Source: an uncultured Muribaculaceae bacterium
GTDB lineage: Bacteria; Bacillota_I; Bacilli_A; RF39; UBA660
Reading direction: 5' to 3'
Length of the DNA: 64,000 bases
Assembly (NCBI GenBank): GCA_964545885.1
Contig: CAZJHG010000003.1
Coordinates: 1,474 to 65,473 of the forward strand
The notes below the pieces were generated by a model. The model worked only from the letters and a program-made list of their open reading frames with translations. It searched no databases and was not told the origin of the DNA. Positions 29,785-37,093 of this stretch are shown here, piece after piece; the stretch's first letter is position 1, and the number at the start of each line of letters is the position of its first letter. The position numbers and the translations under genes were made by a program.

Positions 29785-30459
29785 ATGTCAATTGTATATA
29801 TATTATTAATTATATCTTTAGCTATAACATTAGGTTCTCAGTTATATGTAACCTCAACCTATAAAAAGTATATTAAAGTAAAATCATCTTCTAACCTAAC
29901 TGGAGCCGAAGCAGCACGTCAAGTATTGGACAGTAATGGTTTAAGTAATATTAAAGTAGTTGAAACTAAAGGATATTTATCAGACCATTATGACCCATCT
30001 AAGAAAATAGTTGCTTTATCTAGTAGCAATTATCATAATGCTAGTATTGGAGCTGTCTCAGTAGCTTGTCATGAATGTGGTCACGCAATACAAGATAAAG
30101 ATAATTATACTTTTATGCGTATTCGCTCCTCGTTAGTACCTGTCGTTAATTTTTCTTCGTATGCCGGCTATGTAGCTATGGTACTTGGTATTTTATTTAG
30201 TTCACTAAATCTAATTTGGTTAGGTATCTTTGCTGAAGTTGCTATTCTTATATTTCAACTTGTTACATTACCAGTAGAATTTGATGCTAGTAAAAGAGCT
30301 CTAAAAGAGATAGAAAAATATAATATCTTAAATGATAACGAATTAAAAGAAGGTAAAACAGTTCTAACATCAGCTGCTTTAACATATGTTGCTAGTGTTG
30401 CCACTACAATAATAGAAATTCTTAGATTAATATTAGTCTATGGTAGAAGGGATGATTAA
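29785..30459 (+). CDS. YugP-type membrane zinc metallopeptidase (Zn_peptidase_2 family)
   Basis: GAEAARQVLD, LSDHYDP, HECGHAIQ (HExxH), and C-terminal TM helices. Confidence 0.8.
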   Translation: MSIVYILLIISLAITLGSQLYVTSTYKKYIKVKSSSNLTGAEAARQVLDSNGLSNIKVVETKGYLSDHYDPSKKIVALSSSNYHNASIGAVSVACHECGHAIQDKDNYTFMRIRSSLVPVVNFSSYAGYVAMVLGILFSSLNLIWLGIFAEVAILIFQLVTLPVEFDASKRALKEIEKYNILNDNELKEGKTVLTSAALTYVASVATTIIEILRLILVYGRRDD

Positions 30460-30461
30460 TT

Positions 30462-30932
30462 ATGAATTTTAACAATGGTGAATTGCCGTCGTTTAAAACT
30501 CTTTTTAATTATTTGGTTGATTCATTAAATAAATTTCTTTTGGTATTACTAATAATTATAGTGATATTATCTATATTTATATCAAACTTCTTTATAGATT
30601 TGTCAAAATTTATTATTATAGGAATCATTATCTTTCGTATGGTATCTAAAAATAAAATTCAAAGAAACAAAGAAAATAAAATGTTTTTAAAAATCAAATC
30701 AACAATTTTAAAACCATTCAATAGTATTATAAGAAACTTTAAAGATAGAAAAAAATATGTTTACAAAAAATGTTCTAAATGTAAAACAATATTGAAACTA
30801 CCTTTACCAAATAAAATAGGCATTAACCATGCTAAATGTCCAAATTGCCATAATAGAGTTACACTTTTTACTCTAAGAAAAAAACATCCCGAAAAAATAA
30901 AAGTTGAAGTTATAAAAAAGAAGGTAAGCTAG
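30462..30932 (+). CDS. Membrane protein with C-terminal zinc ribbon
   Basis: Two TM segments, then CSKCKT...CPNCHN. Starts 2 nt after the yugP-like stop. Confidence 0.6.
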   Translation: MNFNNGELPSFKTLFNYLVDSLNKFLLVLLIIIVILSIFISNFFIDLSKFIIIGIIIFRMVSKNKIQRNKENKMFLKIKSTILKPFNSIIRNFKDRKKYVYKKCSKCKTILKLPLPNKIGINHAKCPNCHNRVTLFTLRKKHPEKIKVEVIKKKVS

Positions 30933-31011: not shown

Positions 31012-33126
31012 ATGAAAAAGTATAAGAAAAGTATTTTATTTTTACTATTTATTTTAATACCTTTTGTGGTTTCAGCTCGTAATTTGGAAGATCTAGAATT
31101 AAAATGGACTGATGAAATAGAAGATGATGGTTATATTTTTAATCCAGTTACTGAGTTGGATCCTAAATATGCAGAATATAATCATGGATATAATGAAAGT
31201 AAATTTATCGAAACAGATGAAGGTTATCTTATTATAGGTAATTCTAGCTTTAATTTGTATGATAGAAACAAGGGATTAGTTAAATCAGTTAGTGCTGGTT
31301 ATAATCATCAATATATTGAGGATGGAAATAATTATATAGTAATTGGCAAAAATTATGATAATTATTCTGCTAACATTAAAATAGTAACATCTGAGTTAGA
31401 TGTTCTTGCTGAATATGATTTTTCTATGTGTTCGATTTTTAATTTTTTTATTAAAGATGATTCTTTGGTTGTTGTTTATGAAGAGTGTGATAGTGATGGT
31501 TATTATTTAAATTCACTAGTTTTAGAAAAAGAAACATTAAAAGAAAAACATTCTTCAAAAATCTTTACTTTGAAAACTACTTATAATTACTTTTATGAGG
31601 CTAAAATATATAGAGACGATTATTATAATTATTACTATTTAGATAAAGATTTTAATATTGTACCAGATAATTTGAATGATGATAGTTCTTATTTTATCTC
31701 TGATGATAATTATTTGTACTTGTTTGATAAAAGCGGGAAAGAGTTGAAGTCAATTAATATTGAGCTGTCAGATAATTATTCGCGTTACTATTGGGATAAA
31801 ACTCCTGTAAGAAAGTATAATAATTTTTATTATGTTTTTAGCAATGAATATAAGTATGATGCAGTAACAAAAAAATATTTACATAGAGTTGTATATTATA
31901 AATATGACAATGATTTTAGATTAGTTGATACTAAAATTTTAACAGGTGAACCTACGAGTAGGAGTGATTCTTATAATGCTAGGTTATATTTAAATAAAAA
32001 AGGTTTATTTATTTACTATAGTTATAATAATCAATACTATAAAATAGAAGATGATTTTAGTTTTACAACTTCAGATAGTTCGTACATGTATGACGAAATA
32101 GAAAAAAATATTGATTACCCGAATGTACCAAAAATTAATAATCAATTAAATGCTTATTTTATGGTTTATGAATATCTTGATGCTCTTGCTTCTGATAAAG
32201 AAGAAAAGTTAGAAAAAGATTTAAGCGATAATGATAATGCATATATTTCTTTTTCATATGATACATATTATGATGAAGATAACGAACAATTAATAATAGC
32301 TGTTACTTGGTTAGAAGAATTATATATAAATGGAAATTACACAGATTATACTGAAGCAGAACTAATTTACTTAGATGAAGAAAATTATGAATCACCAACA
32401 ATAGTTACTTTAGTTGAAAGGTCAAAATATACTGGTTCAAATTATCTTTATACTGAAAATATTGGCGCGAAGATGTATGTTGATGAAGATAATATCATCG
32501 TTGCTCTTAGCTTAGGCAATAAAATAATGACTAATATCTATGATAGAGAAGGAAAACTAATTAAAACACTATCTGAGAAAAAAATTAAAGGACTGTCACC
32601 TCAAATGGTTAGTTATAATGCTGGAAGATTACTTGTCATTTTTAGTATGTATCCAGAACCAGTGGCTCCAAATAATAATTCAGTTAACTTTACTGGTAAT
32701 ATTACTAATTTTATACCAGATGCTAAATTGACTGTGTATATTCCAGGTATAGATGGTGTTGCTTCATACTCATATATTGAATATTATGAAACACCATTTA
32801 ATATTACAATTAAGACAGATGGTAATGGAACAATAGAGTCTACTAAAGTAAAAGCATCATCTGGAGATGAAATTAAATTTACTATAACACCTAAAGAAGG
32901 ATATGTTCTTAGCGTAGTTAAAGTAACTGATTCTAGTGGTAATGTTGTAACATTTAAAGACAATACGTTTACAATGCCTTCATCAGATGTAACAATTGAG
33001 GCTACATTTGTACCAGAAAACCCTAATACTGTAGATGCTGCAATAATAGCTAGTATTGCAGTAATCATCTGTGGTAGCATAGGTATTATTTATAGCATAA
33101 GAAAAATTAAATGGTTAAATATTTAA
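31012..33126 (+). CDS. Large Y/N/D-rich surface protein with a divergent InlB-B-repeat-like domain and a C-terminal NPNTVD-TM-basic tail
   Basis: Signal peptide. The segment ITIKTDGNGTIESTKVKASSGDEIKFTITPKEGYVLSVVKV..TFTMPSSDVTIEATF resembles the Flg_new_2 pattern. C-terminal tripartite signal. Confidence 0.75.
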   Translation: MKKYKKSILFLLFILIPFVVSARNLEDLELKWTDEIEDDGYIFNPVTELDPKYAEYNHGYNESKFIETDEGYLIIGNSSFNLYDRNKGLVKSVSAGYNHQYIEDGNNYIVIGKNYDNYSANIKIVTSELDVLAEYDFSMCSIFNFFIKDDSLVVVYEECDSDGYYLNSLVLEKETLKEKHSSKIFTLKTTYNYFYEAKIYRDDYYNYYYLDKDFNIVPDNLNDDSSYFISDDNYLYLFDKSGKELKSINIELSDNYSRYYWDKTPVRKYNNFYYVFSNEYKYDAVTKKYLHRVVYYKYDNDFRLVDTKILTGEPTSRSDSYNARLYLNKKGLFIYYSYNNQYYKIEDDFSFTTSDSSYMYDEIEKNIDYPNVPKINNQLNAYFMVYEYLDALASDKEEKLEKDLSDNDNAYISFSYDTYYDEDNEQLIIAVTWLEELYINGNYTDYTEAELIYLDEENYESPTIVTLVERSKYTGSNYLYTENIGAKMYVDEDNIIVALSLGNKIMTNIYDREGKLIKTLSEKKIKGLSPQMVSYNAGRLLVIFSMYPEPVAPNNNSVNFTGNITNFIPDAKLTVYIPGIDGVASYSYIEYYETPFNITIKTDGNGTIESTKVKASSGDEIKFTITPKEGYVLSVVKVTDSSGNVVTFKDNTFTMPSSDVTIEATFVPENPNTVDAAIIASIAVIICGSIGIIYSIRKIKWLNI

Positions 33127-34337: not shown

Positions 34338-34407
34338 CCAATGGTCTCTTTTTTTTGACTTCACCAAAAACATTAAGTATAATAATCCCTACAAAAGAGG
34401 GATATCT

Positions 34408-35274
34408 ATGCAAGAAACATCATTATCAGAACAAATCAAAAAAAGAGGATATAAAATACCTAAAATAATTATTCCTTCACAAGAACTATTATCTATAAAA
34501 GAAGTCATCGACAAAGAAAAGCACACAAATGTTAAGCTTAATAAAAGAAACTTAAAATATATATTAGATAGAACTCATTCATTTCTTGATAGCCATTTTT
34601 GTCTATATGATGTTCCTTTTTATAGTGAAAATAGACTTGGTCCAATAAAAATAGAAAAATACGGAACAATTCATCCATATGGTTTACCAATTACTAAAGT
34701 AAAGGGAGAAGACACTTTTTACGGTTGCTTAAGAGAAGTAATTGATTATAAAGATGATAAAATAATTAACTATTCTTATCGTGGAATAGAATTATCTAAA
34801 AATTTAACAGAATTATCTTCACTATCATATACACATGAAATTGTTCATTCAGAATTAAATCACGTTAAAGGTATTGTAAAAGAATACTCTAATATAGAAT
34901 TTCTTAGTATTTTCTTAGAAACTCTTCAAGCTTATGAAACATCTCAAGATTTACTTATAATACATGATCAAGAAAGATTATTAGAACTCTCAGGAATTAT
35001 TAAAGAACTAAAAGAATACCATTCAACAACAGATTCTCAAATAAAAGATGTTCTAATAGAAGGAAGTTCCTATGCTGAATCTACTTTAAAAGCTTACGCT
35101 TTATTTATAAAGTATTATAATAGTTCTTCTCAAGTAAAAAAAGAAATATTAAGTTCTATTCAAAAAATATTTAATTATGAGTTATCAGTAGAAGAATTTC
35201 TTATGAAATACGATATTACATTTTCTGAAAGTCTAGATTCAATAACAATAAAAAGTTATTTAAAAAGGAGGTAA
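34408..35274 (+). CDS. Uncharacterised HExxH protein, paralogue 1 of 3
   Basis: SLSYTHEIVHSELNHVKGIVKEYSNIEFLSIFLE, with HEIVH starting at nt 34834. No signal peptide. Confidence 0.7.
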   Translation: MQETSLSEQIKKRGYKIPKIIIPSQELLSIKEVIDKEKHTNVKLNKRNLKYILDRTHSFLDSHFCLYDVPFYSENRLGPIKIEKYGTIHPYGLPITKVKGEDTFYGCLREVIDYKDDKIINYSYRGIELSKNLTELSSLSYTHEIVHSELNHVKGIVKEYSNIEFLSIFLETLQAYETSQDLLIIHDQERLLELSGIIKELKEYHSTTDSQIKDVLIEGSSYAESTLKAYALFIKYYNSSSQVKKEILSSIQKIFNYELSVEEFLMKYDITFSESLDSITIKSYLKRR

Positions 35275-35278
35275 TTAT

Positions 35279-36148
35279 ATGACTCAAATTAGTAAAGATG
35301 ATGAAATAATTAAAAGAGCATTAAATCCTAATCCAGAAATAATAAATCCTAGTGATGAATTATTAGATAGTTTAACTCAATATAGTATGCTACCGATAGC
35401 TAATAAGGATTACGAAGTACACCGAATGTCTATTAATAATGCTTTATATGATGCTCAAACTTTTTTATTATATTATTACAATTTACATAAGGTACCAACA
35501 GTTAATATTCATAAATTACTAGGTCATCAAATCCATATTGGTAAATCAGTTAGCCCATTAAAATTACCAGTAAATCTAGTACCAAATGATGACATATTTT
35601 CAGGATCAGTAACAGAAGTCTTAACCAATAGAGAACCACATATTATCTTTCGTGAAATAAATTTAAATATTCAAACTACCGAGCAAACATCATCTTCTTA
35701 TATTCACGAAGTAACTCATACTCAAATAGATCGTTTAAAAGGAGCTGTAAAAGAATATTATAATCTGGAAATAATAAGTATTTTTAATGAACTATTTCAT
35801 GCTTCTATTTTAGATAGTGATGAAAGAATATTAAGACTAAATGATTCAAGGCGTATTAATGAAATGACAGTTACAGCCCAAGAATTAAGAGATTATCATG
35901 ATGGTAAAAGTACTATGAATCGTGATGAATTACTAGATTGCTGTAAATATTTAATATCAGATTTACAAGCTTACCAATTATTTGTTACTTTTTATAATAG
36001 TACAGAGTATACCAAAAATGAGATTATAGATGATATTCAAACTATTTTTGATGGTTATATGACAGTCGAAGAATTACTTGATAAATATGAAATCACCTTA
36101 GAACCAGATGAAGATGAAAAAAAATTATTAAAATATTTTAATAGATAG
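35279..36148 (+). CDS. Uncharacterised HExxH protein, paralogue 2 of 3
   Basis: SSSYIHEVTHTQIDRLKGAVKEYYNLEIISIFNE. Strong AGGAGG RBS. 4-nt gap from paralogue 1. Confidence 0.7.
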   Translation: MTQISKDDEIIKRALNPNPEIINPSDELLDSLTQYSMLPIANKDYEVHRMSINNALYDAQTFLLYYYNLHKVPTVNIHKLLGHQIHIGKSVSPLKLPVNLVPNDDIFSGSVTEVLTNREPHIIFREINLNIQTTEQTSSSYIHEVTHTQIDRLKGAVKEYYNLEIISIFNELFHASILDSDERILRLNDSRRINEMTVTAQELRDYHDGKSTMNRDELLDCCKYLISDLQAYQLFVTFYNSTEYTKNEIIDDIQTIFDGYMTVEELLDKYEITLEPDEDEKKLLKYFNR

Positions 36149-36157
36149 AGTGATAAT

Positions 36158-37093
36158 ATGTATAAAATAATTGATAAAGATAAAGAATTAATGGTCCATG
36201 GTCATGAGTCTCTAAAAGAAATTTTAACTCCTCCAAAAGAATTAATTGATTTTATAAACTTTATTGAAGATTTAGAAATAGAAAAAAGGCCATTCTATCT
36301 AGGACCATCTACCAAAGAAACTTCAATAAAAGAAGCCCAAAACTTTTTTAATACAAAATTTAAATTACATAAAGTTCCCTACAAAGGAGAAATACGTTGT
36401 TCTCTAGACTATTACATTTTAAAATATATACCAGGTATTGAAATACCTTTAAAATTACATAATGTTTCTAGATATGTTCATCCATTTGACTTACCAATAA
36501 GATATACTGAAGATGATCAACCAGACTGCATGGTAGTAGAAAATATAACATATATGAACACTGAGTCTTTTCTAAATAGAATGATAATATCATATAAAGA
36601 GATTGTTTTACCATCTAATATAACAGAATTGACATCAAGTTCATATGTCCATGAAATAACTCATACTCAACTTTCCCATATAAAAGGTATAATCAAAGAT
36701 TATTATAATTCAGAAGTACTAAGTATTTTCTTAGAAATATTAAATGTTTATGAATCTAATAATAGTAATCGTTTACTACCTTTACAAGACGCTTGCAGAC
36801 TACTAGAAATAAAAGAAGACTTAAATATATTAATAACTCATCATAATGGAGTAATTATTTCCAAAGAAGAAGATTTAATAGATGCTTCTAAGTATTCAAT
36901 ATCAATTTTAAAAGCTTATGGCTTATTTATTGAATATATAAATGGATCTTCGTCTTTAAAAAAATATATTCTAACTTGTATCCAAAATATTTTTAATGGT
37001 GATTTATGTTTAGAAGAATTACTTGATGAGTTTGAATTAATACCTGAACGTATTACTAAAGATGAAAAAGTCTTATCATATTTTTCAAGATAA
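36158..37093 (+). CDS. Uncharacterised HExxH protein, paralogue 3 of 3
   Basis: SSSYVHEITHTQLSHIKGIIKDYYNSEVLSIFLE. 9-nt gap from paralogue 2. Confidence 0.7.
   Translation: MYKIIDKDKELMVHGHESLKEILTPPKELIDFINFIEDLEIEKRPFYLGPSTKETSIKEAQNFFNTKFKLHKVPYKGEIRCSLDYYILKYIPGIEIPLKLHNVSRYVHPFDLPIRYTEDDQPDCMVVENITYMNTESFLNRMIISYKEIVLPSNITELTSSSYVHEITHTQLSHIKGIIKDYYNSEVLSIFLEILNVYESNNSNRLLPLQDACRLLEIKEDLNILITHHNGVIISKEEDLIDASKYSISILKAYGLFIEYINGSSSLKKYILTCIQNIFNGDLCLEELLDEFELIPERITKDEKVLSYFSR

Follow-up and report, generated by a model that had tools for sequence, protein, structure and literature searches.

What kind of protein is encoded by the three similar, consecutive genes that lie near the middle of a 64,000-nucleotide (nt) stretch of contig CAZJHG010000003.1 (hereafter the window) from an uncultured gut-dwelling member of the RF39-type Bacilli, an AT-rich piece of DNA with a G+C content of about 26%? 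The three tandem copies are termed A, B and C here, in 5' to 3' order. A reading made from the DNA letters alone (hereafter the original prediction) had taken them for diverged paralogues of an unrecognised cytoplasmic protein family with an HExxH motif. Our analysis finds that they are members of a real, previously unannotated and lineage-restricted family, which is an undescribed gluzincin family and not a new kind of system. The explanation that we favour, and hold to be reasonably probable, is that A, B and C are soluble, zinc-dependent peptidases with an M3-like catalytic lobe, which are expressed from one promoter and degrade peptides in an auxotrophic bacterium with a reduced genome.

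Three Paralogues of an Unannotated Protein Family

Copies A, B and C are clear paralogues with a similarity far beyond chance, their pairwise BLASTP E values being 1e-45 (A/B), 4e-39 (A/C) and 2e-37 (B/C) at 32-38% identity. The genes are co-directional and closely spaced, with gaps of 4 nt between A and B and 9 nt between B and C, and the original account of three tandem open reading frames (ORFs) with short gaps, ribosome-binding sites (RBSs) of their own, a shared core and a shared C-terminal block proved right in every detail that could be checked. The alignment of the three proteins holds 58 invariant columns, which include S138, S140, Y141, H143, E144, H147, K154, G155, K158, Y160, N162, E164, S167, I168, F169 and E171 in the core and A229/Y230/L232/F233, I251/Q252/I254/F255 and E262/E263/L265 in the C-terminal block. 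Identity reaches 44-60% in the core (residues 131-175) compared to 22-31% in the N-terminal and 35-39% in the C-terminal part, and the HExxH motif is kept in all three copies together with the glutamates 17 and 24 positions after its second histidine (Glu+17 and Glu+24). Copy C has about 20 extra residues, which form two helices within the beta-sheet region. As had been claimed, neither a signal peptide nor a transmembrane segment was found in A, B or C, and their maximal Kyte-Doolittle scores over 19 residues (0.67-1.01, compared to 2.2-3.2 for the adjoining membrane proteins) suggest that the proteins are soluble and cytoplasmic.

The description of the family as unrecognised was borne out, as no meaningful match to A, B or C was obtained in Pfam, NCBIfam (E ≤10), PADLOC or PHROGs, no family match was obtained when 41 diverse members were scanned singly against Pfam and NCBIfam (E ≤1), and a search of PDB sequences with the family profiles gave no match. 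The M78 ImmA/IrrE, SprT, M48, WLM and other small HExxH families of Pfam gave no hidden Markov model (HMM) match either, to the three copies or to the 41 members. Two candidate matches were rejected, namely Cas10_III-i, which is noise (17 bits against a cut-off of 175), and DUF6782, which appeared for one of the 41 members in Pfam and is not significant (E 0.018). Word-indexed searches returned 65 clusters for copy B and 71 for copy C, none of them with a precomputed Pfam domain and all with 'hypothetical protein' as the sole source name. An exhaustive profile search retrieved 575 representatives at 50% clustering (E ≤1e-3), 153 of them at E ≤1e-30, and the length of the representatives is nearly always 270-330 residues. 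No viral relatives were found in the BFVD viral structure library or in a scan of viral contigs.

Conservation across these relatives is centred on the predicted active site. The family was checked for loss of HExxH among homologues, and the motif is retained in 209 of the 211 proteins retrieved. Among 149 aligned members (copy B numbering) the frequencies are 0.99 for H143, 0.99 for E144, 1.00 for H147, 0.99 for E164 and 0.91 for E171, and residues further downstream are also strongly conserved (Y224 0.94, S227 0.98, A231 0.95, Q254 0.93). The original prediction had held both glutamates to be invariant; this is nearly so for Glu+17 (99%) but not for Glu+24 (91%), which is replaced in some copies. 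The same was seen at 34 loci, where every copy retains HExxH and Glu+17 and the serine and second glutamate of the motif are sometimes substituted. Judged from the sequences, such conservation is what a functional zincin site would show, and Glu+17 would be a better candidate for the third metal ligand than Glu+24. An HExxH motif with a conserved glutamate, together with the helices 136-151 and 165-178 in the model of copy B, places the family among the gluzincins (clan MA(E)), the type that had been proposed, and HExxH and Glu+17 are present in at least 99% of the 149 members.

Predicted Fold and Comparison With Known Peptidases

A check of the family by AlphaFold modelling and Foldseek had been suggested and was run on copies B and C. 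Both models are confident, with a predicted local distance difference test score (pLDDT) of 92.6 and a predicted template modelling score (pTM) of 0.92 for copy B (20-sequence alignment), and 95.9 and 0.94, respectively, for copy C (58-sequence alignment). They have a common layout, which runs from N-terminal helices through a small beta-sheet, the HExxH helix and the Glu helix to a helical bundle. In the PDB, the top three Foldseek matches of copy B are all (putative) oligoendopeptidase F (PepF) structures (3sks, E 3.9e-3; 3ce2, E 9e-3; 2h1n_A, E 0.095) with probabilities of 1.00, 1.00 and 0.98 and query template modelling scores (TM-scores) of 0.43-0.51, and the fourth match drops to a probability of 0.16. 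Copy C matched 3ce2 (E 4e-4), 3sks and Pz-peptidase A (3ahm, 3aho) with probabilities of 0.95-1.00, and MATCAP came fifth as a weak match (probability 0.38). Structures of the M4, M1, M13, M48 and M78 families were not among the PDB matches of either model. The M3B peptidases PepF and Pz-peptidase A appear to be the only credible PDB neighbours of these two independent models, and the earlier statement that the family does not match M3 has to be revised, since the credible fold neighbours belong to M3B and the E-x-x-S-x-x-x-E motif stands in the PepF register.

The family and PepF are alike in being soluble cytoplasmic HExxH zincins whose active-site helix follows a beta-sheet and precedes a helical bundle, and both carry a Glu-helix motif (E-x-x-S-x-x-x-E) behind the HExxH helix. 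The PepF chains 2qr4 and 3ce2 in the PDB read HE(M/G)GH-x23-AEIAST.NE. The M3B pattern is HExGH-x23-E-x-x-S-x-x-x-E, whereas that of the family is HExxH-x16-E-x-x-S-x-x-x-E, with a spacer that is seven residues shorter, and the family lacks the glycine of the PepF HExGH motif, reading HE(I/V)(T/V)H(T/S)Q instead. The proteins also differ in size, with 288-311 residues here compared to about 600 in PepF, whose two-lobed, channel-enclosing architecture they lack. The HExxH motif lies at residue 143-165 in A, B and C rather than at 387, leaving about 240 fewer residues upstream, and the N-terminal domain of PepF (PF08439) is missing; true PepFs carry both PF01432 (Peptidase_M3) and PF08439 (Peptidase_M3_N). 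Tandem arrays are a feature of the family, unlike PepF. A comparison set of four plasmid-borne or archaeal PepFs was extended by 21 more, and E415, S418 and E422 are invariant in all 25. In an hhalign comparison of the family with PepF, only the HExxH region was aligned, with a seven-residue gap, and E164, S167 and E171 were paired with PepF E415, S418 and E422; a greedy run aligned the family with PepF residues ~234-588, without statistical support. To judge from the models, the family seems to be either derived from the PepF (M3B) catalytic lobe or related to it, at half the size of PepF. Because the hhalign score is not significant, this relation is drawn from fold and motif register and not from sequence homology, and the family is not filed here as a member of M3 but described as an M3-like, half-size gluzincin family.

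Other gluzincins resemble the family less closely. Thermolysin-type enzymes share the HExxH motif and a conserved glutamate on the following helix (17 positions after the second histidine in the family), and the N-x-E-x-x-S-I-F block of the family is reminiscent of N-E-A-I-S-D-I-F in thermolysin, but there is no Pfam match and the spacer and surrounding fold of the family are M3-like and not thermolysin-like. MATCAP, of the DUF1704 type (7z6s), is a gluzincin whose compact catalytic domain has about 330 residues, and it was matched by copy C at a TM-score of 0.33-0.35; however, the match is weak and absent from the Foldseek list of copy B, and no Pfam match to DUF1704 was found.

Proposed Activity and Its Alternatives

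If A, B and C are M3-like peptidases, the two histidines of HExxH and Glu+17, which is the first glutamate of E-x-x-S-x-x-x-E, would hold one Zn2+ and the glutamate of HExxH would activate a water molecule, with Tyr224, Ser227 and Gln254 (copy B numbering), on the following helices, probably lining the site. The cleft should be more open than that of PepF, because the proteins lack the ~240 N-terminal residues with which M3 enzymes close their substrate channel. The role would most likely be the breakdown of imported or endogenous peptides, and the three old paralogues are probably partly redundant, with specificities that perhaps overlap and are not sharply separate. RF39 Bacilli form a common, uncultured group in the gut. 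They have reduced genomes that are without several amino-acid pathways and are auxotrophic for amino acids (PMC6784871), which suggests that peptide catabolism is central to the RF39 lifestyle.

Several observations weigh against this explanation. The superposition on M3B structures is partial, with query TM-scores of 0.35-0.51 and root-mean-square deviations of 8-16 Å over the models of B and C. Neither PF01432 and PF08439 nor the NCBIfam oligoendopeptidase F model matched A, B or C (E ≤10) or the 41 members (E ≤1), hhalign comparisons with two PepF profiles (4 and 25 sequences) were not significant (probability 1.3% and 1.1%; pairwise E 0.04-0.05), and homology to M3 is not demonstrable at the sequence level. 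The preference for Glu+17 over Glu+24 as the third ligand draws solely on motif register and conservation. Moreover, A, B and C evolve faster than the adjoining housekeeping genes, which is less typical of a core peptidase: the orthologues of the window and of a related locus (L001) are 56-70% identical, compared to 84-89% for BacA, Prs and the P-loop kinase of the same pair. Finally, a run search turned up no RNA run containing the stretch, and DNA runs that were only weak.

The missing sequence-level link to any peptidase family, and a lineage-restricted, tandemly expanding and fast-evolving family that resembles immunity or conflict arrays, would also suit proteins that are not peptidases at all, having either another HExxH/Glu chemistry (e.g., that of an oxygenase or another metal hydrolase) or a function as fast-evolving binding or immunity-type tandem proteins. 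The HExxH domain of the oxygenase ChlB does occur low in the Foldseek list of copy B (probability 0.10). We consider such functions very unlikely, since the conservation of H, E, H and Glu+17 at 99% or above points to a functional zincin site, M3B structures are matched with probabilities of 0.95-1.0 compared to 0.10 for the oxygenase, PADLOC, PHROGs and viral contigs yielded neither matches nor relatives, and no defence- or toxin-like neighbours were seen at the loci examined.

A different kind of protease can also be envisaged. Loss of the channel-closing lobe should lift the M3 size filter for short peptides, and A, B and C could be substrate-specific processing or regulatory proteases that act through an open cleft on folded proteins or protein termini, with one target per paralogue. 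Their relatively fast evolution is consistent with this, as is the presence among the copy C matches of MATCAP, a gluzincin that trims a protein C-terminus. This seems unlikely to us, given how weak the MATCAP match is, that no conserved partner or target gene adjoins the family across lineages, and that fixed clade-specific residues of the sort that would mark distinct targets were not seen.

The family is of interest beyond this locus. The 575 clusters, none of them annotated, and the several copies present in many genomes represent a considerable gap in Pfam, NCBIfam and probably MEROPS. If active, the family would define a minimal M3-like catalytic unit, would help to explain the evolution of the large M3, M2 and M32 channel peptidases and would provide a new family name for the annotation of gut metagenomes.

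Distribution, Copy Number and History of the Array

When one genome per species was scanned by pattern, 25 loci were found, all of them in uncultured gut metagenome-assembled genomes (MAGs) labelled Bacilli, Bacillales, 'Tenericutes', Candidatus Coprovivens or bacterium and obtained from human, mouse, rabbit, sheep-rumen and bird samples. Close relatives of the window are named Candidatus Coprovivens, which NCBI lists as Bacilli incertae sedis and which belongs to the GTDB order RF39, family CAG-1000 (PMC8035907). When copies were counted with the family HMM over all fetched loci (cited by L numbers), four were found in L013 and L014, three in the window, L001, L003, L005, L009-L011, L016 and L020-L022, two in L007/L008/L015, L018 and L019, and one in L017, L023-L032 and L038-L041; L012 also falls in the two-copy group, with a broken A and an intact B. 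In L038, the single copy is overlapped by a 323-residue gene that does not belong to the family.

In a maximum-likelihood tree of 58 copies, A, B and C of the window fall into three separate clades, each with 99% support in the Shimodaira-Hasegawa-like approximate likelihood ratio test, and the members of a clade always occupy the same array position. The triplication is therefore old, and the original view of it as old and maintained agrees with these well-supported clades and their constant A-B-C order. The most persistently retained is clade B, the extra copy of L013 and L014 is a B-like duplicate, and the arrays of L020/L022 and of L019 arose independently. Losses have occurred as well. 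In L007 (a Candidatus Coprovivens excrementavium-like relative) and L008, copy C is reduced to N- and C-terminal remnants (residues ~7-43 and 250-308) with the catalytic core deleted, and A and B are intact; in L012, copy A is split into two ORFs by a frameshift, a stop or an assembly error, C is absent and B is intact. The three-copy unit is thus not obligatory, because copy number ranges from 1 to 4 and copies have been lost or have decayed in some lineages. The proposed check of copy number and adjacency gave a divided answer, with the A-B-C order kept and the copy number not constant.

These patterns also bear on the possibility that A, B and C form a hetero-oligomer in which adjoining subunits supply the lid of the missing M3 lobe and so build an enclosed oligopeptidase chamber. 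Such an arrangement would be in keeping with the 4- and 9-nt spacing and one likely promoter, the A-B-C order in every three-copy relative, a half-size architecture without a channel-closing lobe and the independent tandem expansions in L020/L022 (three copies) and L019 (two). However, many genomes have a single copy (L017, L023-L032, L038-L041), C persists only as remnants beside intact A and B in L007/L008, A is broken and C absent in L012, and a single clade-specific position is fixed, all of which makes a hetero-oligomer of this kind distinctly unlikely in our view. A low probability is likewise given to a 'split' or modular oligopeptidase, in which half-size M3-like subunits (as homo-oligomers in single-copy genomes) would form the equivalent of the PepF lid and the paralogues would tune the specificity of the chamber. 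To our knowledge, an architecture with a subunit-borne lid has not been described for clan MA peptidases.

Pairwise dN/dS values are 0.17-0.57 (<1), with dS saturated at ~1, so that they are indicative only. A single alignment position shows a fixed difference between the three clades (at 80% within-clade conservation), so the divergence appears diffuse and does not mark distinct specificities; the sub-functionalised specificities suggested earlier find no clear support here.

Two of the loci, L009 and L024, belong to the same MAG (CAVAGO01), which is the closest relative genome, and the contig of L024 holds a fourth, very divergent member on a long branch. The genome of the window may accordingly hold further copies outside the window.

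Gene Organization and Neighbourhood

All three RBSs are purine-rich, reading GAGGGA in A, AAGGAGG in B and the weaker GAGTGA in C. The sigma-70-like match upstream of copy A (Table 1) is the best in the 11.5 kb scanned, as a consensus match only, and in total such matches are not above shuffled expectation across the scanned region. It is likely to be the promoter of the A-B-C unit, and the three genes are probably co-transcribed. Listed in the scan as a terminator-like site on the minus strand, a 6-bp inverted repeat (ATCCCT-N7-AGGGAT) is located downstream of the best -10 hexamer and ahead of the start of copy A; it may be an RBS-sequestering hairpin, because its 3' arm is the RBS of copy A.

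Table 1. Positions of the array, its predicted sites and the other features discussed.
Feature	Locus	Position	Strand	Description
Copy A	window	34408-35274	+	288 residues; clade A; family HMM E 1.8e-86
Copy B	window	35279-36148	+	289 residues; clade B; family HMM E 1.4e-92
Copy C	window	36158-37093	+	311 residues; clade C; family HMM E 1.5e-94
Copy A active-site stretch	window	34834-34920	+	H143-E144-x-x-H147 … E164-x-x-S167-x-x-x-E171
Copy B active-site stretch	window	35705-35791	+	H143-E144-x-x-H147 … E164-x-x-S167-x-x-x-E171
Copy C active-site stretch	window	36650-36736	+	H165-E166-x-x-H169 … E186-x-x-S189-x-x-x-E193
Sigma-70-like promoter match	window	34355-34383	+	TTGACT-17-TATAAT, 11/12; 25 nt upstream of copy A
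Inverted repeat	window	34385-34403		6-bp arms
Zn_peptidase_2 gene	window	29785-30459		PF04298
Transmembrane/zinc-ribbon gene	window	30462-30932		156 residues
Surface protein gene	window	31012-33126		704 residues
Copy C remnants	L007	8872-9176		catalytic core deleted
Split copy A	L012	5387-6130		two ORFs
Gene upstream of bacA	L001	11753-12925		no Pfam match
Gene upstream of bacA	L003	11017-12192		no Pfam match
Gene upstream of bacA	L016	9860-11116		no Pfam match

The genes named as neighbours in the original prediction are as described there, with a metallo-beta-lactamase (MBL) fold protein, a GNAT, an AAA_18 P-loop protein and two GNATs. The functional link to small modifying enzymes did not hold up, since these neighbours are common only to close relatives and are replaced elsewhere. 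The neighbour analysis covered the 34 loci and four more distant ones, and no conserved partner gene was found across them beyond the close clade; the GNAT, kinase and MBL genes are not conserved outside that clade, and a functional connection of the array with them was rejected for this reason. In 13 related loci, a Zn_peptidase_2 gene precedes the array by no more than a few kb, an adjacency that is limited to the close clade. The Zn_peptidase_2 protein of the window is, like A, B and C, a putative zinc peptidase of the HExxH type, but it is a membrane protein (Kyte-Doolittle score over 19 residues 2.2) of another family, with no evidence of a functional link to the array. In L003 and L007 the array directly follows Zn_peptidase_2 and is itself followed by a GTPase gene, in L005 an esterase and a methyltransferase gene come after it, and distant single-copy members are found among unrelated housekeeping genes (peptide deformylase, SMC, PFK, MFS transporter). 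Such a housekeeping and variable context is more in keeping with a general cytoplasmic enzyme than with a dedicated system.

Some further genes of the region were also noted. The 704-residue surface protein of the window, with a signal peptide, an InlB B-repeat-like Flg_new_2 domain and a C-terminal transmembrane segment, is encoded between the small transmembrane/zinc-ribbon gene and the MBL gene; its absence from that position in L001 and L005 suggests a lineage-specific insertion. Ten related loci have, immediately upstream of bacA, a conserved gene of ~390-400 residues without a Pfam match (examples in Table 1), which is absent from the window, where a GNAT gene abuts bacA instead. The 156-residue protein of the window has a transmembrane region and a C-terminal CxxC…CxxC zinc-ribbon and no Pfam match; its gene directly follows Zn_peptidase_2 in 14 loci, and it may be a partner of that membrane peptidase.

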